Shown one piece after another: positions 1,737 through 56,015 of a DNA stretch of 64,000 nucleotides. Made by a program: the position numbers and the translations under genes. The stretch covers positions 20,581 through 84,580 of the forward strand of contig CAZHNW010000002.1 of assembly GCA_964534225.1 (NCBI GenBank), written 5' to 3'. The notes beneath the pieces were generated by a model. It saw only the letters and a program-made list of their open reading frames with translations. It searched no databases and was not told the origin of the DNA. Each line of letters starts with the position of its first letter. Position 1 is the first letter of the stretch. Origin of the DNA: an uncultured Leptospirales bacterium. GTDB lineage: Bacteria; Spirochaetota; UBA4802; UBA5550.

Positions 1737-4226
1737 TTATTCCGATATTACCGCAAAGTCTGACACACAGTCATCGCCTTCTATAGAAAGAAGCCTTACT
1801 CCTGTTGCAGTTCTTCCCTGAGTTGAGATATCCTTTGCCAGAACCCTGATTGTCATGCCTGATTTTGAAATAATAATTATTTCATCATCAGGGAAAACAG
1901 ACCATATGCCAACAGCTGCACCATGCTTATCGCTGGCCTTAACATAAGTCATACCTTTACCACCACGTCCCTTTGTGGAAAAATTCTGATAGACGACCCT
2001 TTTGCCAAATCCCTTTTCTGTCAGTACAAAGAGGGAAGAATTTTTCTTTACAACATCAATACCGATAATCTGGTCATCTTTAGTAAGACGCATCCCAATA
2101 ATACCAGCGGCGGTACGTCCCATGGTACGCATCTTATCAATATTGGTGCGTATAATAAGGCCGTTTCTCGATGCAATCACCACATCGTTATCCTTTTCAA
2201 CCACCCTGACATCTACCAGCTCATCTTCCTTTTTGAGATTAATGGAAATAATCCCTCCCTTACGGGAATTCGAAAAATCGCTGGCAGCGATCTTTTTCAT
2301 TATTCCGTTCCTGGTGACCATACAAAGGTTTATATCCTCACTGTAATCGTTTACAGAACAGATGGCCGTAATAAGTTCTCCCGATGAAAGATTAATAATT
2401 CCCTTGAGGCTTTTCCCTCTGCTTGATTTTGAAGCAACAGGAATCTCATATGCTTTGAGAGAAAAAATCTTGCCCTTGTTTGAAAAAAGCATCACCATGT
2501 CATGTGTTGAGCAGATTGTCATCATCCTGATAAAATCTTCACGCTTTGATGACATTCCAATTACGCCCTTACCGCCACGACGCTGTTTTTTGAAGGTATC
2601 GATAGGCATACGGCGTATAAACCCATCATTGCTAATGGATATTACCATATCCTCTTCAGCAATAAGATCCTCAACATTGAAATCGGTGGAAGTTTCACCT
2701 CCTTCCACAATTTCAGTTCGTCGTGGATCAGCATATTTTTCCTTAACAGCCAGGAGTTCATTCTTTACTATATTTAAAATTTTTGTCTCGCTTTTCAGAA
2801 TCGCCTTAAGCTCGGCAATAAGCTTTTCCAGCGCCTTTAATTCTTCAACGATCTTCTGCACTTCAAGGCTTGTCAGCCTCTGCAGACGCATATCAAGAAT
2901 TGCCTTTGCCTGGATTTCAGAGAGTTTGAAACGCTTAATCAGTTTCTTTCCCGCCTCATCGGCATTCTTTGATCCACGAATGATCTTGATAACCTCATCA
3001 ATATTATCAAGGGCTATCTTGAGTCCTTCAAGAATATGAGCCCTCTCCTCGGCCTTTCTCAGTTCATACTGTGTTCTGCGTGTCACAACCGTTTTACGAT
3101 GAAGAACGTAATGAGATAAAATACCTTTGAGATCGAGAATCTTTGGCACATTGTCAACGATGGAAAGAAATATTATTCCATAGGAACTCTGAAGAGCGGT
3201 ATGCTTGTAGAGTTGATTTAATATGACAGAGCTGTTAGCGTCTTTTTTAAGACCAATGAATACACGCAGTCCCTTTTTATCAGATTCATCGCGAATCTCG
3301 GCGATGCCTTCAATTACCTTTGCGTTGACAAGTTCCGCAATCCTGGCAATCATATTAGCCTTGTTGACCTGGTAGGGAATATCCTGGATAATAATAGCTT
3401 CACGACCACGTTTATATTCTTCAATAGTTGAATGAGCACGTATCTTGATACTGCCTCTGCCTGTTGTGTAGGCCTTGTAAATACCCTCACTGCCCATAAT
3501 ACTGGCACCGGTGGGAAAATCAGGACCCTTGATATGCTTCATCAACTGCTTGATCTTTATATCAGGATTTTCAATCAATGCGATTGTGCCATCAATGACT
3601 TCACCCAGGTTATGAGGAGGAATTTTAGTTGCCATACCAACGGCAATACCTTCAGAACCGTTTACGAGAAGATTAGGGAATGATGCAGGAAGTACAATTG
3701 GTTCCTTTCGTGTTTCATCGAAATTAGGGAGAAAATCAATTGTTTCTTTATCTATGTCCTTAAGCAGTTCTTCTGCAGCCTTATTTAAACGGGCTTCAGT
3801 ATAACGATAGGCAGCAGGAGGATCACCGTCAATGGAACCGAAATTACCCTGTCCATCAATGATGGGTAGCCTCATGGAAAATTCCTGAGACATCCTGACC
3901 ATTGTGTCATACACAGCTGAATCACCATGGGGGTGAAAGTTACCAATAACTTCCCCCACAATCTTTGCTGATTTAACATAGGGCCTGTCACTTCTCCAGG
4001 CCCTCTCGTTCATGGCGTGCAGAATCCGGCGATGGACTGGTTTTAATCCGTCACGAATATCAGGAAGGGCCCGGCCGATTATGACACTCATTGCATAATC
4101 GAGATAGGCGCCCCTCATCTGGTCTTCAATTTCAACATCAAGAATAGTCTCCTGTGGTTGAAAAAGTTCCTGCTGTGTATCTTTTTTGACCTTTGCTGGT
4201 TTTTTACCTGTTTTTTTCGTCGCCAC
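1737..4226 (-). CDS. gyrA: DNA gyrase subunit A
   Basis: 829 aa. Has AAYRYTEARL and active-site region NFHPHGDSAVYDTMV, and C-terminal beta-pinwheel repeats. Directly downstream of gyrB. Confidence 0.97.
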   Translation of the reverse strand: MATKKTGKKPAKVKKDTQQELFQPQETILDVEIEDQMRGAYLDYAMSVIIGRALPDIRDGLKPVHRRILHAMNERAWRSDRPYVKSAKIVGEVIGNFHPHGDSAVYDTMVRMSQEFSMRLPIIDGQGNFGSIDGDPPAAYRYTEARLNKAAEELLKDIDKETIDFLPNFDETRKEPIVLPASFPNLLVNGSEGIAVGMATKIPPHNLGEVIDGTIALIENPDIKIKQLMKHIKGPDFPTGASIMGSEGIYKAYTTGRGSIKIRAHSTIEEYKRGREAIIIQDIPYQVNKANMIARIAELVNAKVIEGIAEIRDESDKKGLRVFIGLKKDANSSVILNQLYKHTALQSSYGIIFLSIVDNVPKILDLKGILSHYVLHRKTVVTRRTQYELRKAEERAHILEGLKIALDNIDEVIKIIRGSKNADEAGKKLIKRFKLSEIQAKAILDMRLQRLTSLEVQKIVEELKALEKLIAELKAILKSETKILNIVKNELLAVKEKYADPRRTEIVEGGETSTDFNVEDLIAEEDMVISISNDGFIRRMPIDTFKKQRRGGKGVIGMSSKREDFIRMMTICSTHDMVMLFSNKGKIFSLKAYEIPVASKSSRGKSLKGIINLSSGELITAICSVNDYSEDINLCMVTRNGIMKKIAASDFSNSRKGGIISINLKKEDELVDVRVVEKDNDVVIASRNGLIIRTNIDKMRTMGRTAAGIIGMRLTKDDQIIGIDVVKKNSSLFVLTEKGFGKRVVYQNFSTKGRGGKGMTYVKASDKHGAAVGIWSVFPDDEIIIISKSGMTIRVLAKDISTQGRTATGVRLLSIEGDDCVSDFAVISE

Positions 4227-4244: not shown

Positions 4245-6188
<1,944 letters not shown>

Positions 6189-7751: not shown

Positions 7752-8861
7752 TTATTTTTCTATAATGTGAGCCTCTTTTTCAAGGGAAAATGTTTTCACT
7801 GAAGGGAAAAGGTCAATATTAAACATTCGTATATCAACCATGGTAAATATTACCTGGTTTCCTCTGCTTAAGATTTTTACCATATTCGCCCTTCTCTCTT
7901 CATCAAGCTCAGAAAAAATATCATCAACAAGTATAATTGCCTTTGTTGACAGTTTCTTTTCCAGGTATGAAAATTCTGCAGCTTTAAGTGCAATGGCTGC
8001 AGTACGTCTTTGCCCCTGAGAAGCATAACTTGTAAAATGAATATTTTCACTCATCTGGAGCCTGATATCATCTCTCTGGGGACCAGCACCGGTATTGCCA
8101 CTCATAATGTCCTTCTGTCGCCTGGAAATAAGACTCGTGACAATATCATTATCTGAATCAACATTTATCGATTCTATATATTTTATATCAGGGCCGGAAT
8201 CATTCAGACCTATCTTTCTGTAACTTTCAGAAAAAAGCATTTGAAATATTTCAATAAAGGCCCTTCTCTTTTTAATAATATATGATGCCTTTTCTGCAAA
8301 AAGAGCATCAAATACATCAAGCTGCCGCGTATCACTGGTCTTTCTTTCTCTCAATGATTTCAACAGCCTGTTTCGTGACATCAGTATTTTTCTGAATTCA
8401 TTGAGATTTTCAAGATAAACAGGATCTGTTTTAGAAATAACACTGTCAATAAACCTGCGTCTTATTTCAGGGGCACCGTTTACAAGGTTAATATCAACAG
8501 GAGAAAAAACTACTGTCTGTAGTTTTCCGTAATAATCGCTTATGCGATTTATTTCTCTTCCATCTATTTTTACACGTTTTTTTAATCTTTCCTTTTCGAT
8601 ACTGCAACCGACTTCATAACGATGTACTACATCTGTATGTACCCGGGAAGAACAGTAATAATTATCCGTATGCCATCGCATCATATCTGAATCACTGACA
8701 TTGCGAAATGATTTGATATGTGAACATACGGCAATAGCTTCAAGAATATTTGTTTTCCCTGTTCCATTTTTACCGGTTATAAAATTAATCTCCGGTGAAA
8801 AATTAACACACAGCTCAGGATAGTTTCGAAAATTTTTGCAGCTCAGCTCAGTCAGATACAT
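7752..8861 (-). CDS. recF: DNA replication and repair protein RecF
   Basis: 369 aa. Walker A ITGKNGTGKTNILEAI, SMC-like signature region. Classic position after dnaN. Confidence 0.95.
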   Translation of the reverse strand: MYLTELSCKNFRNYPELCVNFSPEINFITGKNGTGKTNILEAIAVCSHIKSFRNVSDSDMMRWHTDNYYCSSRVHTDVVHRYEVGCSIEKERLKKRVKIDGREINRISDYYGKLQTVVFSPVDINLVNGAPEIRRRFIDSVISKTDPVYLENLNEFRKILMSRNRLLKSLRERKTSDTRQLDVFDALFAEKASYIIKKRRAFIEIFQMLFSESYRKIGLNDSGPDIKYIESINVDSDNDIVTSLISRRQKDIMSGNTGAGPQRDDIRLQMSENIHFTSYASQGQRRTAAIALKAAEFSYLEKKLSTKAIILVDDIFSELDEERRANMVKILSRGNQVIFTMVDIRMFNIDLFPSVKTFSLEKEAHIIEK

Positions 8862-8889: not shown

Positions 8890-10026
8890 TTAATCAGCTG
8901 ATGATTTTATCTGTATAGGCATGATAACAGATACATACTCTTTATCATCTTCAGGGACAATGGTAATGGGACTCATTTGACCGGTAATGCCACACTTGAT
9001 GGAATATGAATCAATTTCCCTGAGACATTCAATGAGAAACTGTGCATTCAATCCAAGAGTTACTTTTTCGTTAGAATTGGATTCGATATTTAATTCCTCT
9101 TCGGCCTCACCTAGTTCGGGGGTCGTTGCCTCAATATTCAACTTTGAATTATTGAAGGTAAGGATTATTTTGTTTGCAGGTTCACGGGTAAAAATCATTG
9201 CCCTCTTCACAGAATCGAGGAGCTTTTTTGTTTCAATAATGACTTCCTGGCTGTTTTCGAGAGGAATAACATGCTTGTAATTGGGAAACTGTCCATCAAC
9301 TATACGTGAAATAATTTCGGTGTTGCCTATTCTGAAAAAACACTGGTTGTTATCGTAGCTGAACCGGCAGAGACCTGAAGATTCCAGGAGACGGAAGATT
9401 TCATTGACTGTCTTCAGTGGAATTATAATCCCCTCCTGAAGTCCAATATCGGTTTCATTATCAAGATTTCTTGTAATTAAGGAAAGCCTTCGAGAGTCGG
9501 TAGCGACAGCTGAAATAAATCCTGGTTTTTCATTGATAAGATAGATACCGTTAAAGACAGGCTTTATAGTATCGTTAGATGCTGAGTACATGACTTTTTT
9601 AAGCATCTCCTTGAGAAGAGACTGTTCTATTTCTATAGCTGAATTTTCGCTGAATTCAGGAATCTCAGGATAATCTTCTGTACCTGTACCAATAAGCCGG
9701 TAATGGCCTTTAACTTCCTTTGATTTTGTTTTTATATCTATTGCCATCTGGTCATTGATATCAATAACCAGTTCATCGTTGGGAAGTTCTTTGAGTATGC
9801 TCGAGAATTTTTTTCCATTAACGGTAAATGAAATATTTGATTCAGCAACTGCATCAATTTTGGTTCTTACCGCCATTTCGTTATCTGTTGATAAAATTTC
9901 TATTTGATCTTTTGTAATATTAAAAAGACAGTTTGAAAGTATGGTATTAACATTTTTGGATGAAACAATTGAATCTGCTATTTGTATTGTTTTCAGCAGG
10001 TTTTCTTTGTCGACATTGATTTTCAT
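8890..10026 (-). CDS. dnaN: DNA polymerase III beta subunit (sliding clamp)
   Basis: 378 aa, three-domain beta-clamp length and profile. Immediately downstream of dnaA. Confidence 0.95.
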   Translation of the reverse strand: MKINVDKENLLKTIQIADSIVSSKNVNTILSNCLFNITKDQIEILSTDNEMAVRTKIDAVAESNISFTVNGKKFSSILKELPNDELVIDINDQMAIDIKTKSKEVKGHYRLIGTGTEDYPEIPEFSENSAIEIEQSLLKEMLKKVMYSASNDTIKPVFNGIYLINEKPGFISAVATDSRRLSLITRNLDNETDIGLQEGIIIPLKTVNEIFRLLESSGLCRFSYDNNQCFFRIGNTEIISRIVDGQFPNYKHVIPLENSQEVIIETKKLLDSVKRAMIFTREPANKIILTFNNSKLNIEATTPELGEAEEELNIESNSNEKVTLGLNAQFLIECLREIDSYSIKCGITGQMSPITIVPEDDKEYVSVIMPIQIKSSAD

Positions 10027-10288: not shown

Positions 10289-11635
10289 TTAACTTTTTAA
10301 TTCCATAATAAGGTCTTCAAGCATTTCTTTAAATTCCGGGTTTTTTTTCATATTATCTTCGACTTTATTTACTGCGTTGACAACAGTTGAATGATCCCTG
10401 TCACCGAATTCTTTTCCGACATCAGTTGTGGTCATATCGGTAAGTTTTCTGGCCAGAAACATGGCGGTAAAACGGGGAAGGATTATTCTGTTTTGCCTGC
10501 TGTTTGATTTAAGGTCTTCAGGGGTTACCTGGTACTTTTCTGAGACCTTTTTCATTATATCGCTGAGGGTCACCTTCTGGTTGGCGTCGACGTCAAATAG
10601 TTCTTTGAGATGAACCTTGGCGAGTTCAGCAGTGATGGGATTATTATTGAAAGAGGCAACCATCTTTAAACGGTTTACAGCCGCTTCAAGTGCTCTGATA
10701 TTTGATTTTATCCTTCGTGCTATATAGGTATAGGCTTCATCGGTAATGTCGATATCAATCTTTTCGGCCTTATTGCGCAGGATTGCTTCACGAGTTTCGA
10801 GATTAGGAGGCTGGATATCGGTTATCATTCCCCATTCAAAACGTGTTCTGAGCCTGTCAGCAAGTGTCGCTATCTGTTTGGGCGGCCTGTCGCTTGATAT
10901 TATAATTTGTTTCTTGTTTTCGTGCAGGGCATTAAAAGTATGAAAAAATTCATTTTGCGTTTCTTCCTTGTTTTCGAGGAATTGAATATCATCTATCAAC
11001 AGAATATCAACATCCCTGTATTTTATTTTAAAACTTTCCTGTGTTCTGTTGCGTATTGATGTAATGAATTCATTTATGAACTGCTCGGTGGAAACAAAGA
11101 GAACCTTGAGATAGGGTTTTTCGTCAGTGATATAATGTCCTACAGCCTGAAGAAGATGGGTTTTACCGAGACCGGATGATCCGTAAATAAAAAGGGGATT
11201 TATCTCCCGTGCAGGAGACTGCGCCACGGAGTAGGCAGCGGCATGGGCGAATTGATTATTAGGGCCTATAACGAAATTATCGAAGGTATAACTGGGATTG
11301 AGTACCAGGTCAGGTTTTTCATTTGAATTAATTCTCGGGATAAAATCCGGTTCAGGGTTTGTCTTTATATCGGTTTGTTTCGTTTTATCGAAATCGATAC
11401 CTGTAACAAACTCACAGACATATTTACGTCCTGTTATTTCTTCAACGATTGACTCTATCTGTGTCGAATAATGTTCATGTATATGCCTGCGAGCCACATC
11501 ATCAGCAACCTTAACGGTAAGGCGGTTTTCGGTAAGGGAAACCGGTTGAGTATCCTTGAGCCACATATTAAAGGATTGTCTGTTAATTTCTCCTTCAAGG
11601 GTGGATAAAACCCTGTTCCATATTGTTTGTGTCAC
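10289..11635 (-). CDS. dnaA: chromosomal replication initiator protein DnaA
   Basis: 448 aa. AAA+ Walker A GSSGLGKTHLLQA, Walker B LLIDDIQFL, C-terminal DnaA-box binding helix region (KSNSRQNRIILPRFTAMFLARKLT). Confidence 0.97.
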   Translation of the reverse strand: MTQTIWNRVLSTLEGEINRQSFNMWLKDTQPVSLTENRLTVKVADDVARRHIHEHYSTQIESIVEEITGRKYVCEFVTGIDFDKTKQTDIKTNPEPDFIPRINSNEKPDLVLNPSYTFDNFVIGPNNQFAHAAAYSVAQSPAREINPLFIYGSSGLGKTHLLQAVGHYITDEKPYLKVLFVSTEQFINEFITSIRNRTQESFKIKYRDVDILLIDDIQFLENKEETQNEFFHTFNALHENKKQIIISSDRPPKQIATLADRLRTRFEWGMITDIQPPNLETREAILRNKAEKIDIDITDEAYTYIARRIKSNIRALEAAVNRLKMVASFNNNPITAELAKVHLKELFDVDANQKVTLSDIMKKVSEKYQVTPEDLKSNSRQNRIILPRFTAMFLARKLTDMTTTDVGKEFGDRDHSTVVNAVNKVEDNMKKNPEFKEMLEDLIMELKS

Positions 11636-27528: not shown

Positions 27529-30021
27529 GTGATGATGAAGTTAAAAGCAGCCATCCTGAATATGTGTATTATTTCCCTCTTTGCCGCCTGCGGCGGCATA
27601 AGTCCCCTTGAAATGGCCGGTAATTTTATTGCCAACAGGCCCCCGGAGATCACGGATTTCAGGACTACAACTGATATTAGCCGGGGCCTTATCCCCAATA
27701 TGACCATGCATCTTGAGGTTGAGGCGGATGACGCTGATGGCCATGAACTGAACTATGAGTTTACCGCCGATAACAGTATCGGTTCCTTTGCCTTTAAAGA
27801 AGTAACAGACACGGGGTGTTCCATAGATTATTACCTGCCTGATGCCATTCCCCTGGACCTTTCATTCAGTGTCACCGTTACCGTCACCGACCCGAAGGGG
27901 GCTGAGTCGGTACAGAAGCTGGATCTCGGCACGGGGAAGACGGGGCCGGTACTTTCTACACGGACCCTCAGTGAGACCGGTTTTTTTGTTGTACGTGAAG
28001 GGCGCACCTATGTAAAACCGGATTACCAGGCGGAGATAGAATTTACCAGTGACAGCGACGGCTTTTACCAGGTGCGTATTTACAGTGACTTTGAGGCGGA
28101 ACCATCCTTTGATGAAAGCAAACCGGTTCATCTCTACCGTGTTGCCAGCGGCCCTAAAACCATTACCATAGCCGCCAGCGGTACCTCCGCTGACGCGATC
28201 ATTACCCCCAACACGCCCCAGAAGCTCTGCATCTTTATGCAGGACACCCTGGGACAGACCAGCCTCAAGGTCTATTATTACTATGCAGACACGGCACCCC
28301 CGGCGCCCCTCATGGACTATAAACATGGCATTGCCATTACGAAAGGTCAGACCCTGGTGATACCCTTTGATGAAGAACTTCAAATCTCAGGGGCAGCGGC
28401 CTTTGATTCCACTGATCCTGTCAATACTATTCTTGATGACGGCATAAACGCCACGGCAACGGTAAGCGGCTCAACAGTAACCATTACTCCTCAAACGGGC
28501 AGCACCTGGTCAATGGCCACTGAAAGATATTCGCAGCAATACGAACTCTATCAGACGGGCCTTGACAGGATTGCCCGCATCAACGTAAAGGATGATTTTG
28601 ACAACGAGGGATATGTGGATATCCGGTTTCATGTTTTTGAAGAGGTTCTGTATGTCAATGCCGGTAATACCGCTGCCAGCCCTGACGGTTCAGCGGACAA
28701 TCCCTACAGGTATATTCAGGATGCCGTGGATGTTGTCCGTACCAGTGGTAATATTGCGGGGATATGTGTCTCACAGGGAACCCATACACCTCAATACACC
28801 GGAACCAGTGTTGCCCTGATAAGTGGTTATGAACAGGTCAATCTCCTGGGGGGCTATGCGTATCAGGATAATGATACCACAAAGGTCAACCCCCTGCGAA
28901 GAGACCCGCAGAAGTACCCTTCGGTTATCAGTTATACCGCCCCTGATCCTGATGGCGCCGGTTCTAATCCCGGGGGGGCCATTGATGAGCCGGCAAGCGC
29001 CATCTTGATGGGGACGGATAGTAATTATAATTATCCGGTTCTCATTGACGGTTTCATCTTTGAGACCTCCGGGCATGCAAAGGGCTCCACCGTTGTCGCG
29101 GATATTTTCTGTGGCAACCATGCTGCCATGATCCAGGGCAATGTCTTTTATACTGCCGCCAATACTGCCTACAGCTTCAATATTGCTGTTGTCTATAACA
29201 ATGTGATTGAAGGGATCAGTAATACCAGTTACTGTCTCGCATATGAACAGCGCATCTACAATAATTATTTTTTTACCGGTGGGCAGAACAACCATGCCAG
29301 GGCGATACAGATCGAGTGCTGGAGTGAAGATGACATTACCCCTGTTCATGCTACTGATCTTCAGTATAAGGCGGATATCCGTCACAACACCTTTGCCCTG
29401 AGCAGCGGTTCCGGGGGAAAAACCAAGGGGGTTTATATCAGCACCTATCACTGTACCGATCCCAATGCTCCATCAAATCAAGTCTGTTATGAAAACACAA
29501 CAGCGGATTTTCAGATTGATGCAACGGTAATGAATAATCTTATTTTTGTTACCGCCTTTGACCCGGCAAACAGGCCCATGGCCCTTTTCAGTCATCATGC
29601 AGAAACCGCGCCGGGGAATTATTGCGTCTATAACGCCTTTCATAATAATTTTAATGACCTTTCGACAGTCTCTTCAGAATCAGAGATGTATTATTATGTA
29701 CTCAGTTCGCATGTCTCCACTCAAAATTTATATAATCAGGGTTTTGGCTATTATGATACATTGCCATTACCCTCATGGAGCGGTTTTGGCAGTGAAAATA
29801 TAGCCGTTGATCCTCTTTTTGTGTCAGCAGATGGTCTCTGGCTGCTTCAGCAGATAAGCCCGGTTTCAGTACGGATCGAGGGTATTGACGATTCACCCTC
29901 AACAGACGATGGTAATTACCAGGCCTTTGGCCAGATGATTCCCCTGGATTTTTTCGGCAATGCCCGCACCGGCAACGGTACTGACGGAGTATCCCTGGGG
30001 GCCCATGAGATGGACCAGTAG
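27529..30021 (+). CDS. large lipoprotein (830 aa), probable right-handed beta-helix/adhesin-like surface protein
   Basis: Lipoprotein signal MMMKLKAAILNMCIISLFAACGG. T/S/N/G-rich repetitive beta-strand segments (NNVIEGISNTSYC, NNYFFTGGQNNHARAIQIE). G7 tract 28972-28978 inside the CDS. Domain assignment is tentative. Confidence 0.45.
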   Translation: MMMKLKAAILNMCIISLFAACGGISPLEMAGNFIANRPPEITDFRTTTDISRGLIPNMTMHLEVEADDADGHELNYEFTADNSIGSFAFKEVTDTGCSIDYYLPDAIPLDLSFSVTVTVTDPKGAESVQKLDLGTGKTGPVLSTRTLSETGFFVVREGRTYVKPDYQAEIEFTSDSDGFYQVRIYSDFEAEPSFDESKPVHLYRVASGPKTITIAASGTSADAIITPNTPQKLCIFMQDTLGQTSLKVYYYYADTAPPAPLMDYKHGIAITKGQTLVIPFDEELQISGAAAFDSTDPVNTILDDGINATATVSGSTVTITPQTGSTWSMATERYSQQYELYQTGLDRIARINVKDDFDNEGYVDIRFHVFEEVLYVNAGNTAASPDGSADNPYRYIQDAVDVVRTSGNIAGICVSQGTHTPQYTGTSVALISGYEQVNLLGGYAYQDNDTTKVNPLRRDPQKYPSVISYTAPDPDGAGSNPGGAIDEPASAILMGTDSNYNYPVLIDGFIFETSGHAKGSTVVADIFCGNHAAMIQGNVFYTAANTAYSFNIAVVYNNVIEGISNTSYCLAYEQRIYNNYFFTGGQNNHARAIQIECWSEDDITPVHATDLQYKADIRHNTFALSSGSGGKTKGVYISTYHCTDPNAPSNQVCYENTTADFQIDATVMNNLIFVTAFDPANRPMALFSHHAETAPGNYCVYNAFHNNFNDLSTVSSESEMYYYVLSSHVSTQNLYNQGFGYYDTLPLPSWSGFGSENIAVDPLFVSADGLWLLQQISPVSVRIEGIDDSPSTDDGNYQAFGQMIPLDFFGNARTGNGTDGVSLGAHEMDQ

Positions 30022-42187: not shown

Positions 42188-42583
42188 GCCTGTTCACGCT
42201 GTCCTTTTGTAGTGAGATCATCTTATCCTTTCTTTCGGTGGAGACAAGTATAATTTCACATTCACGCGAATTTGAGGGTCTCCTGAAGCCGGATGCTCAA
42301 AATACGCGGTAAAGCGGCCTTTTTCAGTTGCCCTTCTTCCCTGTATTGTATACAGTCATAGTATTTATGAAAAGCCGAAAAGGGCAAATTTTTCACCGCC
42401 TTTCCGTTTATCTTTTGTTCGATTCAGACTTTAAAAAGCAGGCGGGGGGAAGTAAAGGCGCACCGGCCATGAGACCCGGCACGGGGCGCGGTTTTTGTCA
42501 GGGGGAAGTCTCACCTGTCGCGGACAGGCAACCGGTTCGATCCATGCAGATTAATACCAGGTCAAAAAAAGGGAGGAAGAGTC

Positions 42584-43126
42584 ATGGCAGAAAGGGAAAA
42601 AATTTTAAAATACCTCCATGTAAAAAAGGGTGACATAACCCGCGAGGAAGTTGATGCCATTGTTAATGCCGCCAACCCGTCACTTCTCGGCGGGGGCGGG
42701 GTCGACGGAGCCATACACCGTGCCGCGGGGCCGGGGCTTCTCGATGAGTGCCGAACACTGGGGGGATGCCGGCACGGGGAAGCCCGCATTACTGCAGGCT
42801 ATAACCTTCCCGCCCGGCATGTCATTCATACGCCGGGGCCTGTCTACCGGGGGGGGCGTGAAGGCGAGGCGGATGTTTTACGCAGTTCCTATTATAATTC
42901 ACTTCTCCTGGCAAAGGAGTATGATCTTACATCGATTTCCTTCCCCGCCATATCAGCGGGAGTGTATGGCTATCCCCTTGAGGAGGCGTGCCGTATCGCC
43001 GTTGATACGGCAGTAGAATTTATGGAGAGAGAAAATTATTCTATTGATGTATATTATGTCCTTTTTGATAATGGCAATTATAGAATCTATGAAAACTACC
43101 TGAAACAGTTAAGAGAGGGGCAATGA
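42584..43126 (+). CDS. macro-domain protein (ADP-ribose/O-acetyl-ADP-ribose processing, YmdB-like)
   Basis: 180 aa. VDAIVNAAN and [14 protein letters not shown] motifs. G8 tract 42849-42856 inside the CDS. Confidence 0.85.
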
Positions 43127-50952: not shown

Positions 50953-51981
50953 CTACCGCATATATTTTTTAAGGGTGGTGAAATATTTATTCACGGTGAT
51001 GTTTTTTTTGAAATACTGTTTCTTTGTACGGTAAATCACACAACGGGCAAATCCTGACATGTTTTGATAGTGCATGGCTACGCGGTAGTTATCCTTTGTC
51101 CAGATGTATCCCCCCCAGTAGCCCTTCACATGCCTGCTGTAGGGGCCGAACTGCCTTTTCATCCTGGCAAGGAGCCGGCGTGTTTTCGAGGCAACAGTAC
51201 TCTTTGAGTGGTTCCCCAGCTTTACGGTCTCTTTGATAATAACAACTCTCCTGGTGACGGGATCAGCGATAAGTGTCGGGGGATTGGGGCCCGCATAGGA
51301 GTTGGAGCACATCATGACAATATATTTACTTCCAAAAACAGAAAGGTAGTCCTTTTCTCGTTTCTGGTCGGGATCGACTATTCCTGTTGCTTTTACTTTC
51401 TGTCTGAAGACCCTGCGTGCCTGGTCAATGGTCATTCCGAGATGAAACCCGGCGTGGCTGTTCCATGAATTACCTCCTGATGTGCGGCGGGATGAAGAGT
51501 CCCGCTGATTACGACGTGCATGCTTTTTGCCTTTTATGGTAAAGTAGTAATTGATGCGAAGGGTTCGCCTGCTGTTCTGGTCCCGGTGGTATACGATGGC
51601 ATGGTAGCGCCCTGGGCGTATGCTGCGGGAAAGGTTAATGTTCCACATGGCGTTATGGTACCACCTGAAGGTGGCGTTTCTCCGGCGCTGGTTTTTTCGG
51701 GCAGCATTAGCGTTGCGCCAGCCGAAATCCTTTAAAAGGCGGCGGCCTTTTTTTACAACAAGTTTTGTTCGAAAGGGGGCTCCTGTCCCCTGCCTTACCT
51801 TGAGGGGGCCGATCTTATAATAGAAATAGATTTTCTGCCCCTGTTTTACGGATGTGCCGATAGAGCGTGCCCTGGAGGCATTGTTTGTGTTTGTGATAAA
51901 TGATTTTAATAAACGAATGTTTTTCGCCTGCAGTGGGGTAACAAGAGTAAAGGCGAAAATGAAAATGAGTGTTTTTTTCAT
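50953..51981 (-). CDS. secreted, highly basic hypothetical protein, paralog A of a tandem pair
   Basis: Signal peptide MKKTLIFIFAFTLVTPLQA. First 150 aa about 75% identical to the upstream paralog, with about 85% nt identity at the 5' end. R/K-rich divergent C-terminus. Confidence 0.55.
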   Translation of the reverse strand: MKKTLIFIFAFTLVTPLQAKNIRLLKSFITNTNNASRARSIGTSVKQGQKIYFYYKIGPLKVRQGTGAPFRTKLVVKKGRRLLKDFGWRNANAARKNQRRRNATFRWYHNAMWNINLSRSIRPGRYHAIVYHRDQNSRRTLRINYYFTIKGKKHARRNQRDSSSRRTSGGNSWNSHAGFHLGMTIDQARRVFRQKVKATGIVDPDQKREKDYLSVFGSKYIVMMCSNSYAGPNPPTLIADPVTRRVVIIKETVKLGNHSKSTVASKTRRLLARMKRQFGPYSRHVKGYWGGYIWTKDNYRVAMHYQNMSGFARCVIYRTKKQYFKKNITVNKYFTTLKKYMR

Positions 51982-52003
51982 TGATGACCTCGCAGTTTTA
52001 AAT

Positions 52004-53488
52004 TTACTTCTGTTGCCATTTATAGAGATAGTTTACCATGTAGTATGAACCCGGGCCGGACCAGGCGGCATTAATGGTCATGTAATTGTAATATGAAACA
52101 GCGGTATTGTTGTTTACGTAGACTTTTCCTCCCGGTTTTGCCTTGATTGTTCCTTTAGGGTAACGTTTCCACCGGTATGGCTGCTTGAGAGTTGTTTGGC
52201 CGAGAACGTCTCTCCCGCCGTGATAAGAGGGCCGGGCAGAGTATTCAACACTGCATTTAAAAACCCCCGGTATTGTTTGATTCGGTTTTCCTTTTATTCC
52301 TGCTAATTTTCCGCGTGCATCCATTTTTATAACAGAGCCGGGTCGGTATTGTTTACGGGGCCTGTTCCAGGTCCACTTTTCGTGCCTGTATTTATGGCGT
52401 GGAGAACCCCTGTACCATTCACACTTTGTAACGATGCTGGAGCCTGATCGATTTACACGGCACCATCTTTTAACACGTTTTTTAACTGAAGTTTTCACGA
52501 AAACCCAGCGCCCCTTTGCGGCGGATTTTTTGTGAAGCGAAAGAAGAATGTTCCTGACTGCAAGCCGCCTGTGCGATGGCCCTTTATAGTTTTGACGGGA
52601 TGTGGAGGCAATGGCAGTGCGGCCCCGGTGGAGATCGAGGTTGCTGCGAGCACCTCCCGCGAGAAGTGCCTTGACCGTGTTGATGTGGCCGTAGCGGGCC
52701 GCAACGGAGAGAGGTGATGTTGCGGCGAGGCTTCTTCCCTTGATAACATTGGGGTTTGCCCCTGCACTGAGTAAAAGGCGTACAACACCGGTATGGCCGA
52801 ACCGGGAAGCGAGCCAGATGAGACTCTGGCCATAACGGTCTTTGAAATTGGCATTGGCCCCTTTGTCCAGGTAGTAACGTGCTTTCCTGGTATTGCCGGA
52901 TTTGGCTGCCCTGTACAGGCCCATGTTTATATTCGTTTTACTGTTTTTTGAGGTGTCTTCTTTGATAATGTCACTTATGGTGTTAATAATTTCTCCGGAT
53001 GTGCTGGATCGATGTTTCCCCCGCGAAGCTGATTCTCCTATTATTCTAAAAGTGTACCGTATGGCAATATTTTCTTCGGCATTCTGATCATAATGGTAGA
53101 TAAGGGCATTGTATCTGCCCGGGGCGAGTTTCCGTGAGAGTTTGATGTTCCAGCGGGCATTATGGTACCAGCCATAGGTCCTGTTCTGGCGTCTCTGGTG
53201 TGGCTTTACTGCATTAGCGCGTTGCCATCCGAAATCTTTAAGAACACGGTTTCCCTTTCTGATTATAAGTTTTGTCCTGTAAGGGGCTCCTTTTCCTTTA
53301 CGAACACGGAGGGGACCAATTTTATAATAGAAAAATATTTTTCTTCCCTGTTTTACGGATGTGCCGATAGGGTGTGCCCTGGAGGCATTGTTTGTGTTAG
53401 TAATGAATGACTTCAGTAAACGGATGTTTTTCGCCTGCAGTGGAGTAATAAGAGTAAAGGCGAAAATAAAGATGAGCATTTTTTTCAT
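52004..53488 (-). CDS. secreted, highly basic hypothetical protein with ankyrin repeats, paralog B of a tandem pair
   Basis: Same signal peptide and N-domain as paralog A. Central ankyrin repeats (GQSLIWLASRFGHTGVVRLLLSAGANPNV, TSPLSVAARYGHINTVKALLAGGA). R/K/Y-rich tail. Confidence 0.55.
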   Translation of the reverse strand: MKKMLIFIFAFTLITPLQAKNIRLLKSFITNTNNASRAHPIGTSVKQGRKIFFYYKIGPLRVRKGKGAPYRTKLIIRKGNRVLKDFGWQRANAVKPHQRRQNRTYGWYHNARWNIKLSRKLAPGRYNALIYHYDQNAEENIAIRYTFRIIGESASRGKHRSSTSGEIINTISDIIKEDTSKNSKTNINMGLYRAAKSGNTRKARYYLDKGANANFKDRYGQSLIWLASRFGHTGVVRLLLSAGANPNVIKGRSLAATSPLSVAARYGHINTVKALLAGGARSNLDLHRGRTAIASTSRQNYKGPSHRRLAVRNILLSLHKKSAAKGRWVFVKTSVKKRVKRWCRVNRSGSSIVTKCEWYRGSPRHKYRHEKWTWNRPRKQYRPGSVIKMDARGKLAGIKGKPNQTIPGVFKCSVEYSARPSYHGGRDVLGQTTLKQPYRWKRYPKGTIKAKPGGKVYVNNNTAVSYYNYMTINAAWSGPGSYYMVNYLYKWQQK

Positions 53489-53631
53489 TTATTCCTCCGG
53501 GTGTCGTTTAACAGATGTTTTTAGACGTTAAACAAAAAAATTTTCTGCAGGCAAGGAGTTTTTCTAAAAAAAAAGATATGGGTTGTTTTACAGGAAGTGT
53601 AGGGACGGGAATGGTGGTATAATCATTTTAA

Positions 53632-53672
53632 CCTGCAATAATGACGTGTAGAGTTTTTGTCATTATTGCAGG
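53632..53672 (-). terminator. stem-loop terminator downstream of the membrane-protein gene
   Basis: 14-bp perfect inverted repeat CCTGCAATAATGAC-(13 nt)-GTCATTATTGCAGG. Confidence 0.45.
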
Positions 53673-53679
53673 GTCAAGT

Positions 53680-54861
53680 TTATTGAAGCTCGGCTGCAGG
53701 CTGTGCAGAGATACAGGACATTCTCTCTTTTTTCCCCATAACTTCGCTGCAGAGAAGGTGTCTTTTAAACAGCATACCAAAAATACTTACAGATGTAATC
53801 ATCGCGGCTATGTTGACAGCCATTGAAACAGGGCTCTGCACCGTTACCCCGTAAAAGAAGGAACCAAGAACAGCAAAGGCGACAAAGGGACAGACAAAAC
53901 CCCACTGTGAAATATAAAATTCTTTTTTGAAAAAGTCTTTTTTCAGGTAATCCTTTAAGAGGGCGATACCGAAGATCAGGTACCAGACTTCGAAGGCATA
54001 GCCAGTAACGATAGAAATCTGGTTAAAGGTATGCATATGCGCCCCGAACTGGTGTTCCATGTAGTGGCCGAGGCGGAAAATGGAAATGGCATAGAGGGTC
54101 AGGTTCGGCACCACGATGAGAAAACTGGGGAGAAACTGTTTTTCTGGCAGCCCTTCGGCGGCAAAGTGACTTTTGAAAATGGTGATGAGTTTAACTGTCA
54201 AAAGGAAAAATCCCATGGTACCTGAGACCAGTGACATGAAGGCCGCGGTATGGGCAATGCTGGCGTTTTTTGCCATGGCGGCAATGCCTGTACCGGTCAC
54301 GGTGAGCATGCCGAGGGTAAAGGGATGAAGGAGCCATCCGAAGCTGATTTTACTGACATCAAAATTATTCGTAAAAGAAATTTTAAGAAGCCTGATTTCC
54401 ATGCTAAGGATTAAGAACCAGAGGATGCCCCATCCCGCCAGTGCAGGGGCCATCATGCTTTGCAGGTTTGATGAAAGCACCGGGAAGAAGAAGCGAATGG
54501 GACCGATGAAAACATTCATGGTCATGGTCAGGGAAAGAAAGGGGGTCAGTATACCTGCGTTTTTAAGGGGATCATTGATAAAGCCGGTGTATTCCGGTTG
54601 CCTGATCCATGCAAAGAGACGGCGCAGGAAAACAGCTGTTAAAACAAAATGGATTATGACAAAAAGTACCATAATCCCTTCAAGTGAATAATAGAATATT
54701 TCTTTTGAAAGGGGAAGTGAGCCGTGCCCGAGAAAGGAACGGGTAACCAGGCCCTTGAAACCAGTCAGTGAGGACTTCAGAAAAGCAAAGGGCAAGACTG
54801 CAATACCCCCGGCCCCAAGTGAGGCCAGAAAGATCAGGGGAGAAAAGTTTTCATTTTTCAT
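53680..54861 (-). CDS. polytopic integral membrane protein (about 10 TM), possibly a TDT (TehA/Mae1-type) transporter
   Basis: 393 aa, 10 or more hydrophobic helices. Family assignment is a guess from size and topology only. Confidence 0.4.
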   Translation of the reverse strand: MKNENFSPLIFLASLGAGGIAVLPFAFLKSSLTGFKGLVTRSFLGHGSLPLSKEIFYYSLEGIMVLFVIIHFVLTAVFLRRLFAWIRQPEYTGFINDPLKNAGILTPFLSLTMTMNVFIGPIRFFFPVLSSNLQSMMAPALAGWGILWFLILSMEIRLLKISFTNNFDVSKISFGWLLHPFTLGMLTVTGTGIAAMAKNASIAHTAAFMSLVSGTMGFFLLTVKLITIFKSHFAAEGLPEKQFLPSFLIVVPNLTLYAISIFRLGHYMEHQFGAHMHTFNQISIVTGYAFEVWYLIFGIALLKDYLKKDFFKKEFYISQWGFVCPFVAFAVLGSFFYGVTVQSPVSMAVNIAAMITSVSIFGMLFKRHLLCSEVMGKKERMSCISAQPAAELQ

Positions 54862-55232
54862 AGTACTACCTCGTATAGCATACCGTTTCAGACGGCAAAA
54901 ATGTGGATTGATGTAATTATAACGGTAATAATTTTTTGAAATTAAATCATTTTATTGAATTCTAAAATACTAAATTTAATTGTTACTGTCAAATATTTTT
55001 GCCGGCAAATAGAATTTTTTTGATTTTTTTTTCAGGAAGTTTTTTCACTTTTAACTTCCCCCTGCATGTGCAAGGGCCTCTACTCTCTTCTGACCATGAT
55101 TCTACGGGCAGGTTATAGTTAAAAAGTACTGGATTTTTGTAAGAATATGATGCTGTTTTATGTACCTCTACCTGAATGTTCCGGGCAGGGGGAGGGGATC
55201 TGTTCATGATTTTTAACTGAGAGGTACCTGTT

Positions 55233-55700
55233 GTGAAAGCTCCTGTAAAGTATACCGGTATTGTTTTTCTTGTTTTTGTTGCTGCCCTGGCTGCCGCCTA
55301 TGCGTGGATCAATTATGATGCCACGAAACTTCCTGCTAATAATCCTGAAAAATTTGCCAGGGAAAAACGGGTATCACAGAAAGGCAGAAGGGTTGTCGTC
55401 TGCGCAGGAGACAGCATCACCCATGGCAGGGTAAGTATAAATTATGTTGACATACTTGAAAAACGTTTTTCATCGCGGGAGTATATATTTATTAACGCTG
55501 GCATAAATTCAGAACGTGCATGGAATCTGAAAAACCGGCTGGATGCCATTGCTGCATGTCATCCCGACATTATTTCCTTTTTTTTCAGGCAATCATGATT
55601 CCTGGATAACCATAAGTGTTGCACTGCTGCGTGATATTTCCTTTCCTTTGTCATCGCGAAGTGTGGTGTCAACGATGATGAGGCGGCGTCCCCTTTTGTA
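55233..55700 (+). pseudogene. SGNH/GDSL-hydrolase remnant: frameshift at a T8 tract and loss of the C-terminal catalytic half
   Basis: GTG start. Block I CAGDSITHG. After the T8 run (55578-55585) the +1 frame continues with SGNHDSW (the GxND block III) and then terminates near 55700. The catalytic DxxH region is missing and the 3' part overlaps the thioesterase gene on the opposite strand. Confidence 0.5.
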
Positions 55701-56015
55701 GACTGTTGCTTCAGCGATGAGGGACCCTTTTGAAGCCATGGAGAGAAAATTATTTTTCAGTTCAATGGTGGTGATGTTTTCTCCCGGGGCGAGTGTGGTC
55801 ATTACCGCGTGCGCCGCTGCCTCGCTTGAAAAGGCGATAGCGAGGCCCCCCTGCATGATGCCGGCCCCCTGGAGAAACTCCGGGCGAATTGCCATGCTGA
55901 ACCGGGCGTATCCCTCTTTTAATTCTTCGAGATGCATCCCGAGGAAATAGAGAAAGGGATTATCCACTTTCTCTCCGCTTGAGAGTTTTTCTAAATAGGC
56001 CTTGTAGTCATACAT
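55593..56015 (-). CDS. PaaI-family hotdog-fold thioesterase
   Basis: 140 aa. Hotdog-fold profile NPFLYFLGMHLEE...GIMQGGLAIAFSSEAAAHAV. Confidence 0.75.
   Translation of the reverse strand: MYDYKAYLEKLSSGEKVDNPFLYFLGMHLEELKEGYARFSMAIRPEFLQGAGIMQGGLAIAFSSEAAAHAVMTTLAPGENITTIELKNNFLSMASKGSLIAEATVYKRGRRLIIVDTTLRDDKGKEISRSSATLMVIQES

Follow-up and report, generated by a model that had tools for sequence, protein, structure and literature searches.

RbmA is a scaffold protein of the Vibrio cholerae biofilm matrix and is represented by PDB entry 4BE5 (PMC3855419; PMC5605196). It has two fixed FnIII domains and belongs to the rbm/vps cluster. Here, we describe two tandem genes, B and A, on a 64,000-nucleotide stretch of DNA (the window; contig CAZHNW010000002.1, positions 20,581 to 84,580) from an uncultured Leptospirales bacterium. 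Their products share an N-terminal head domain, X, which in the predicted model has the FnIII/Ig-like beta-sandwich fold of RbmA. Nevertheless, there are distinct differences between the two systems. The first is in sequence: X is 14% identical to RbmA, and it falls outside the RbmA-like FnIII family (PF22021), which is matched by one of 32 X domains at E = 0.07 and by neither A nor B. The second is in architecture, since A and B each combine one X with an unrelated tail and are not part of a polysaccharide cluster. In addition, they are far more positively charged than RbmA and come from Spirochaetota.

Other described systems resemble the pair in part. Polymorphic toxins (such as CdiA, Rhs, MafB and LXG) likewise have a constant N-terminus and a variable C-terminus, occur as tandem paralogues or cassettes and recombine at the junction. 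However, neither a toxin domain nor an immunity gene nor dedicated secretion machinery goes with A and B; X matches none of the known trafficking domains (PAAR, Rhs, TPS, LXG, WXG and similar) in Pfam or NCBIfam, and is instead predicted to be a small Ig-like sandwich, which is also found singly or arrayed, and the tails are binding modules or repeats. Big/FnIII/E-set adhesins, the accessory domains of glycoside hydrolases and the carbohydrate-binding domain of Wzt share the beta-sandwich architecture with X, and all of them are repeatable extracytoplasmic binding or spacer modules, although X has motifs of its own and no sequence-level kinship to them. AnkB of Pseudomonas aeruginosa is a periplasmic ankyrin protein with a signal peptide. 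B is similar in that a Sec signal would send ankyrin repeats outside the cytoplasm, but its ankyrin block is inserted, with a novel domain on either side, in an ultra-basic protein, and neither a catalase gene nor a gene for another known partner accompanies it.

Our preferred reading, to which we assign a probability of about 0.4, sees A and B as exported polycations of accessory status that would serve as binding or scaffold proteins in the matrix or envelope, share a docking head and act in a manner analogous to that of RbmA. The evidence for it comes from the predicted export signals, from the occurrence of X as a repeatable module, from its family-wide charge, from the lack of any detected catalytic or toxin signature, from purifying selection on the heads, and from the concerted evolution and accessory status of the locus.

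Structure and sequence of the head domain

X is a domain of about 132 residues that occupies residues 20-152 of both proteins (Table 1). A model built with AlphaFold2 from a 32-sequence alignment is an all-beta sandwich with a predicted local distance difference test score (pLDDT) of 97.2 and a predicted template modelling score of 0.89, and this very confident model indicates that X is an autonomous Ig-like beta-sandwich. There is no Pfam or NCBIfam model for X, and sequence and profile searches found no relative of it among PDB sequences. Searching Pfam and NCBIfam with 32 X domains returned scattered weak matches to Ig-like families only, namely MalQ_N, MG2, ZirS_C and RbmA-like_FnIII. The fold neighbours of the model are also generic, with RbmA at the top of the list and template modelling scores of at most 0.63. 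The family has its own motifs (FYYKxGP, GKGAPxxTR, KDFGW, WYH, PGxYxA and HxDxNSG) together with an invariant Asp. Judged from the model and these searches, X is a new sequence family inside the generic Ig-like/E-set fold.

In a BLASTP alignment, A and B are identical at 111 of 164 positions (68%; E = 1e-77), and nothing aligns past residue ~165; over residues 1-150 the identity is 71%. DNA identity between the two genes declines as longer 5' stretches are compared, from 89% (66 nt) to 83% (200 nt) and 71% (450 nt), and a repeat finder reports the head region as a 282-nt direct repeat (D1) of 79% identity. An earlier sequence-only reading of this DNA had described a shared head outside any named family, followed by complete divergence, and both points hold; its identity estimates (about 75% for the protein, and about 85% for the first 200 nt) were slightly high. 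The closest X relatives of A and B are each other. All others reach at most 60% among the fetched loci, and 61% for P0150.

Distribution and charge of the family

An exhaustive phmmer search with A against 1.84 billion representative proteins (E <= 1e-3) found 30 proteins, about 26 of which contain X. A belongs to a cluster whose representative is the 147-residue fragment P0122. A word-indexed database of 5.8 billion sequences was insensitive for this family: it gave two matches for A and four for the X profile, and missed P0125 and P0127 (50-56% identity). When full-length B was searched against the same database, ankyrin matches swamped the output and nothing was returned for its head or tail. 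The genome scan for X used a 10-sequence alignment.

X is present once, twice (P0134 and P0146) or four times (P0124) per protein; Pro-rich linkers space the tandem copies of P0134 and P0124, and X also occurs alone behind a signal peptide. All family proteins have an isoelectric point (pI) of 9.1-12.0, and every one of the 32 X domains is net positive (+1 to +40; median +11), from which the charge appears to be selected family-wide. N-termini resembling signal peptides were found in 23 of 34 family sequences, the remainder being mostly fragments, and the cleavage motifs are conserved across the family. One relative with Pro-rich linkers, P0145, bears a lipobox and is a predicted lipoprotein.

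What follows X varies widely: the tail Y of A, ankyrin repeats with the tail Z of B, short helical modules, and repeats of either the R/Y-rich or the PGK/PEK kind. Other members, of ~170 residues, are X-only and lack a tail. A CarboxypepD_reg-like region in a further tail was assigned by reading the sequence, and Pfam gave no match there. P0134, P0136, P0142 and P0147 (L023/L024 7671-8606) have low-complexity ends rich in R, Y and G, such as four to five copies of GTRYYKR, with pI up to 12.0; P0145 and P0146 end in PGKGPEKK or EPGKPEK repeats. The R/Y/G-rich and PGK/PEK tails resemble adhesive or phase-separating sequences.

The named carriers of X are exclusively metagenome-assembled genomes (MAGs) of Spirochaetota or Leptospirales. 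The sources include a sludge-digester MAG, activated-sludge contigs and uncultured Spirochaetota/Leptospirales, and most matches come from metagenomes of the Joint Genome Institute. No relative was found on viral contigs, and on this basis we reject a phage origin. There are at least three X genes in one MAG (L005 and L007) and two on a Leptospirales contig (L006), and tandem pairs are present at several loci, so that the genes are neither single-copy nor syntenic across genomes, a point that the sequence-only reading had left to a search of other genomes. Between the two X genes of the Leptospirales contig lies a gene for a secreted protein of 486 residues with no Pfam match (L006 5948-7408), and a 736-residue gene product, GH36-like by reading of its sequence, is encoded next to an X gene in both L006 and L013.

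Tails of A and B

The tail Y of A has no match in Pfam or among PDB sequences. Its homologues fall into four lineages, P0121, P0123, P0137 and the near-identical P0122. A profile-profile comparison ruled out kinship between Y and X, the two being unrelated. The C-terminus of Y (residues 330-342 of A; window 50956-50994) has a conserved basic motif, (V/I)N(K/R)Y(F/W)xx(L/M)(K/S/R)K(Y/F/K)M(K/R)-COOH, which may form an amphipathic helix or serve in sorting. Without exception, Y is linked to X: the two are fused in A and in P0123 (L009), and are encoded by adjacent genes in L003 (same strand) and L022 (divergent). Y and Z alike occur solely fused to X or adjoining it. Since X and Y are both rare and yet linked, this Rosetta-stone pattern indicates that they would function together. 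By these comparisons, X, Y and Z are three unannotated domain families, and the family as a whole is very rare, within the familiar class of modular exported Ig-like binding proteins. What sets it apart in this class is its extreme charge, a concerted evolution restricted to the head, and a strain polymorphism that coincides with a domain boundary.

B is the only one of about 30 family members with ankyrin repeats, which the sequence-only reading had already recognized in it. Its Pfam matches are well above the gathering thresholds: Ank_2 at E = 2e-13 and 51 bits (threshold 27.3), Ank at 5e-13 and 48.8 bits (21.1), and Ank_3 at 6.5e-10 and 38.7 bits (22.3). The repeats place B, and not A, in the ankyrin repeat families (PF00023/PF12796); Pfam found none in A. 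A single-sequence AlphaFold model of full-length B is poor overall (pLDDT of 47), but residues ~185-322 appear in it as four helix pairs; across residues ~190-290, most 10-residue blocks have a pLDDT between 60 and 89. Profile and sequence searches with Z found nothing significant among PDB sequences.

No catalytic or toxin signature was detected in any part of A or B by Pfam, NCBIfam, PDB sequence or defence-model searches, and ankyrin was the sole match to the PADLOC models. By all of the searches run, A and B are thus predicted to be non-enzymatic. This bears on the possibility that they are polycationic antagonists, bacteriocin-like or active on the membranes or walls of competitors, with variable tails that would widen the target range. 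Exported proteins of extreme cationic charge, encoded at an accessory locus that differs between strains and built of a constant head and a variable tail, would suit such a role. However, the searches detected no domain of a lytic, pore-forming or nuclease kind, the locus lacks an immunity candidate, X-only proteins of ~170 residues are common in the family, and the tails are modules of the binding type or low-complexity repeats; we consider antagonism improbable.

The earlier reading had likened the conserved head and variable tail to polymorphic effectors and had asked for immunity-like small open reading frames (ORFs). The architecture itself extends across the family. In contrast, the functional analogy, in which a trafficking head would deliver variable C-terminal toxins, each with a cognate immunity protein, fares poorly: no toxin family was matched, no immunity-like ORF lies between or after the two genes, where the next gene is a convergent GNAT gene, and no secretion-system gene was found among the ~40 window ORFs scanned, which are housekeeping or regulatory. 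We regard a polymorphic toxin system as very unlikely.

Lower still in our estimation is a pair of host-targeting ankyrin effectors in a host-associated spirochaete; the sequence-only reading had stated that secreted bacterial ankyrin proteins are often host-targeting. B does have genuine eukaryote-like ankyrin repeats behind a signal peptide, and NCBIfam models of Dot/Icm effectors of Legionella and Coxiella (AnkC, AnkG, AnkX, AnkY and others) match it weakly. These matches score only 10-18 bits against cut-offs of 450-1400 and cover the ankyrin region alone, so that B is not a full-length equivalog of a Dot/Icm type IV Ank effector. Moreover, no other member of the family has ankyrin repeats, the sources of the relatives are sludge digesters, activated sludge and uncultured MAGs, and the scanned ORFs include no type III or type IV secretion system genes.

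Charge and predicted export

As had been recognized from the translations, both proteins are extremely basic. A has a pI of 11.4 and a net charge of +64 at full length (+18.7 per 100 residues) and +62 when mature; the corresponding values for B are 11.1, +83 (+16.8 per 100 residues) and +81. The two are outliers in the window, where the median over 56 ORFs is +0.8 per 100 residues. The sole other window ORF as basic as A and B is a 101-residue frame at 42328-42633 (+), with a pI of 11.1 and +17.8 per 100 residues; it has no Pfam match and may be no real gene.

The signal peptides are nearly identical, as the earlier reading had also stated, with 18 of 20 residues the same (MKK(T/M)LIFIFAFTL(V/I)TPLQA, followed by K as the first mature residue). 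Judged by our own heuristic for n, h and c regions, both have an n-region, a hydrophobic core of 13-14 residues and an A-x-A-type cleavage site, as expected of substrates of Sec and signal peptidase I. Neither has a lipobox Cys, nor any Cys in residues 1-40, and they are therefore not predicted to be lipoproteins processed by signal peptidase II.

An alternative without export is that the hydrophobic N-terminus serves as an N-out/C-in anchor under the positive-inside rule and that the basic body stays in the cytoplasm, binding nucleic acid or membrane. There is indeed far more positive charge C-terminal of the hydrophobic segment (K20, R23, K26 onward) than N-terminal of it. Nevertheless, the core is just 13-14 residues long and ends in a helix-breaking Pro, followed by A-x-A-type motifs conserved in the family; a lipoprotein is found among the relatives; and an Ig-like fold, linkers rich in Pro and arrays in tandem are what is typically seen in extracytoplasmic proteins. 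Of all the alternatives, we hold this to be the least probable.

Concerted evolution of the heads

Synonymous divergence (dS) between A and B is 0.32 for codons 1-20, 0.53 for codons 1-40 and ~2.5 for codons 41-150. Because the last value is saturated, the duplication is not recent. The sequence-only reading had offered recent duplication or gene conversion; the former must be dropped, whereas the latter suits the low dS of the 5' end. Our data fit an old duplication in which the 5' ~180 nt have been kept alike by gene conversion, or else by very strong constraint there. Head dN/dS values of 0.10-0.17 between B and A point to purifying selection, from which both copies appear to be real genes kept by selection.

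The same kind of pattern is found, independently, in relatives. The tandem paralogues of a sludge-digester Spirochaetes MAG (L004) have the same ribosome-binding site and are 97-100% identical over the first 120 nt; they remain 73-93% identical through codon 180 and are unrelated beyond it. In another MAG (L005), the paralogue heads are 100% identical over 87 aligned residues, compared with 92-93% to the L004 orthologues as defined by their tails. As a pattern of sequence identity, this is the signature of concerted evolution of the heads.

Strain variation at the locus

Two Logan assemblies (L026 and L027) carry the same locus, with flanks that are 98-99.6% identical to the window by blastn. 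In both, the strain-variable segment of Table 1 is swapped for 572 unrelated bp. The right breakpoint is at codon ~149 of A, exactly at the end of X and in an A-rich stretch, and the left breakpoint is right behind the stop codon of the SLAC1/TehA-like gene. The Y tail left in these assemblies has no start codon, no signal peptide and a 3' frameshift, and is a remnant there. The GNAT gene is retained in the strain that lost the pair. Since a strain with 99%-identical flanks has neither B nor the head of A, the pair is judged to be accessory, at a recombination-prone site. Presence that varies between strains was one of the outcomes for which the sequence-only reading had allowed.

The replacement holds an ORF of 131 residues (L026 3052-3447; L027 178-573) with no Pfam match and no counterpart in the window; Pfam gave no support for its being a PilZ protein. 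Relative to L026, divergence over window 53679-54800, in the SLAC1/TehA-like gene (53680-54861), climbs from ~1% to ~15% (14-16 mismatches per 100 bp) toward the junction with the variable segment. This gradient suggests import by recombination from a more distant donor, with one crossover inside the SLAC1 gene. A second indel lies at window 55069-55846, where ~778 bp are absent from L026; it takes in a GDSL-lipase-like ORF that looks truncated (55233-55598), together with the 3' portion of a gene for a 4HBT thioesterase (55593-56015).

Gene organization and genomic setting

The two minus-strand genes, with B upstream and A downstream, have the lengths and the 22-nt spacing that the sequence-only reading had given exactly (Table 1). 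A protein identical to B is also predicted in ENA and Logan assemblies, and A has a full-length orthologue, P0123, of 43% identity; neither a protein name nor an accession is on record for A, B, P0123 or P0124. As the 22-nt spacer holds no terminator-like site on the minus strand, B and A are probably co-transcribed. The 19-nt inverted repeat upstream of B is probably the terminator hairpin of the SLAC1/TehA-like gene.

Table 1. Features of the B/A locus in window coordinates
Feature	Position	Strand	Description	Basis
Gene B	52004..53488	-	494 residues; signal peptide, X head, linker, ankyrin repeats and Z tail, in this order	ORF; GGAGGA Shine-Dalgarno-like site upstream
Signal peptide of B	53432..53488	-	Residues 1-19, MKKMLIFIFAFTLITPLQA, followed by K	n/h/c regions, A-x-A-type site; heuristic
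X head of B	53033..53431	-	Residues 20-152; predicted Ig-like beta-sandwich	Hidden Markov model, E = 1e-57; fold inferred from model of A copy
Ankyrin repeats of B	52589..52933	-	Residues ~186-300; 3-4 repeats	Pfam and helix pairs in model
Tail Z of B	52007..52534	-	Residues ~319-494; rich in R/K/Y/W, outside known families	
Intergenic spacer	51982..52003	-	22 nt; GAGG Shine-Dalgarno-like site before A	Sequence
Gene A	50953..51981	-	342 residues; signal peptide, X head, basic linker and Y tail, in this order	ORF
Signal peptide of A	51925..51981	-	Residues 1-19	Heuristic
Homogenized 5' tract of A	51802..51981	-	Codons 1-60; partner in B 53309-53488; nt identity of 77-93% in 10-codon blocks, compared with 50-67% later in the head	Sliding identity, dS, repeat D1
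X head of A	51526..51924	-	Residues 20-152	
Tail Y of A	50956..51492	-	Residues ~164-342; outside known families	Homologues P0121, P0122, P0123, P0137
Strain-variable segment	51536..53678		Upstream/promoter region of B, all of B, signal peptide and X head of A	blastn, junction sequences
Promoter-like site upstream of B	53625..53652	-	TCTACA-16-TAAAAT; weak match to consensus	
19-nt inverted repeat	53627..53677		Directly 3' of the SLAC1/TehA-like stop codon; overlaps the promoter-like site	Repeat finder (I1)

The window is chromosomal and spans the replication-origin region, with the pair ~40 kb from dnaA; the GC content of the pair is typical for the surrounding DNA. A SLAC1/TehA-like channel gene lies upstream, and the convergent GNAT gene downstream is followed by genes for a ferredoxin-type protein and FemAB. 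Further envelope-related genes near the pair encode an Acyl_transf_3 and an SH3_3 protein.

This setting bears on the main rival to our reading, namely that A and B are strictly periplasmic envelope proteins, in which X would dock on structures of the producing cell itself (peptidoglycan, membrane lipids or periplasmic flagella) and the charge would bind anionic lipids or the wall. The Sec signal peptides, combined with the absence of a recognizable outer-membrane secretion system in the window, the nearby envelope-related genes (FemAB, Acyl_transf_3 and SH3_3) and the restriction of named carriers to Spirochaetota, which have a large periplasm, are all compatible with it. On the other hand, the envelope-gene neighbours are not kept at other family loci, the pair is dispensable in a near-identical strain, and tandem X domains spaced by Pro-rich linkers, as well as R/Y tails of low complexity, are more suggestive of proteins on the surface or outside the cell. 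We judge a strictly periplasmic role to be unlikely, although it is the strongest of the alternatives.

Elsewhere in the window, the origin cluster lies entirely on the minus strand: gyrA (1737-4226), gyrB (4245-6161), a recF-like gene (7752-8861), dnaN (8890-10026) and dnaA (10289-11635). The DNA at 6-12 kb is GC-poor (33-36%), and the GC skew turns from negative to positive at ~10-12 kb; oriC is probably located between dnaA and ~12.2 kb. An ORF of 830 residues (27529-30021, +) has no Pfam match at E <= 1e-5, and an Rfam scan of the whole window gave no match.

Discussion

In our proposed model, B and A would form a two-gene unit that makes Sec-exported, non-lipidated, non-enzymatic, polycationic modular proteins. 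X would serve as the common docking or binding module, either for one ligand or through X-X assembly, and the positive charge would retain the proteins on polyanions beyond the cytoplasmic membrane; examples are acidic exopolysaccharide, extracellular DNA and anionic polymers of the envelope. Distinct binding surfaces would come from the tails, Y in A and, in B, the ankyrin block for protein-protein interaction together with Z. The pair might thus bring two different functions to one site, acting as an RbmA-type scaffold in the matrix or envelope; the ligand, the final localization and the scaffold role are what we infer, at the probability given above. The homologous heads may also act as recombination substrates, with gene conversion keeping the 5' ends alike, while head-plus-tail blocks would be gained, lost or swapped at the domain boundary, giving a strain-variable accessory cassette.

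Several points weigh against this proposal. In a diderm spirochaete, a Sec signal delivers a protein to the periplasm only, and the matrix may never be reached. In E. coli, Sec export would be impeded by Lys or Arg among the first seven mature residues (+1 to +7), and for this reason the export of such basic chains is an assumption. The likeness of X to RbmA is that of a generic fold, and pLDDT in the model of B falls below 45 after residue ~320, in the Z region. Neither conserved neighbour genes across the family loci nor an exopolysaccharide or biofilm gene cluster adjoining the pair was found.

A bolder reading draws on the mussel-glue-like GTRYYKR repeat tails of the relatives. X, Y and Z might belong to an unrecognized exported system, in which K/R- and Y/W-rich polycations gather on polyanionic polymers, outside the cell or in the periplasm, as an adhesive or condensate held by cation-pi and electrostatic interactions, and in which the head also serves as a handle for recombination, by which tail cassettes are shuffled among paralogues and strains. 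We think this improbable, but if true, it would represent a mechanism for diversifying surface or matrix proteins that is unlike known toxin or antigenic-variation cassettes.

The locus touches no long-standing question of the field, and the function given here is a proposal. It is a clean natural example of concerted evolution limited to the 5' head of tandem paralogues, and likewise of a strain-level swap precisely where a domain ends. How chains with a net charge above +60 pass through Sec is a further question that it poses. If A and B are indeed accessory exported scaffold proteins, X, Y and Z would gain a context as rare, modular, ultra-basic binding proteins of environmental spirochaetes, and the pair may offer an entry point to how uncultured spirochaetes of anaerobic digesters and sediments adhere to or organize polyanions such as extracellular DNA, acidic exopolysaccharide and necromass.

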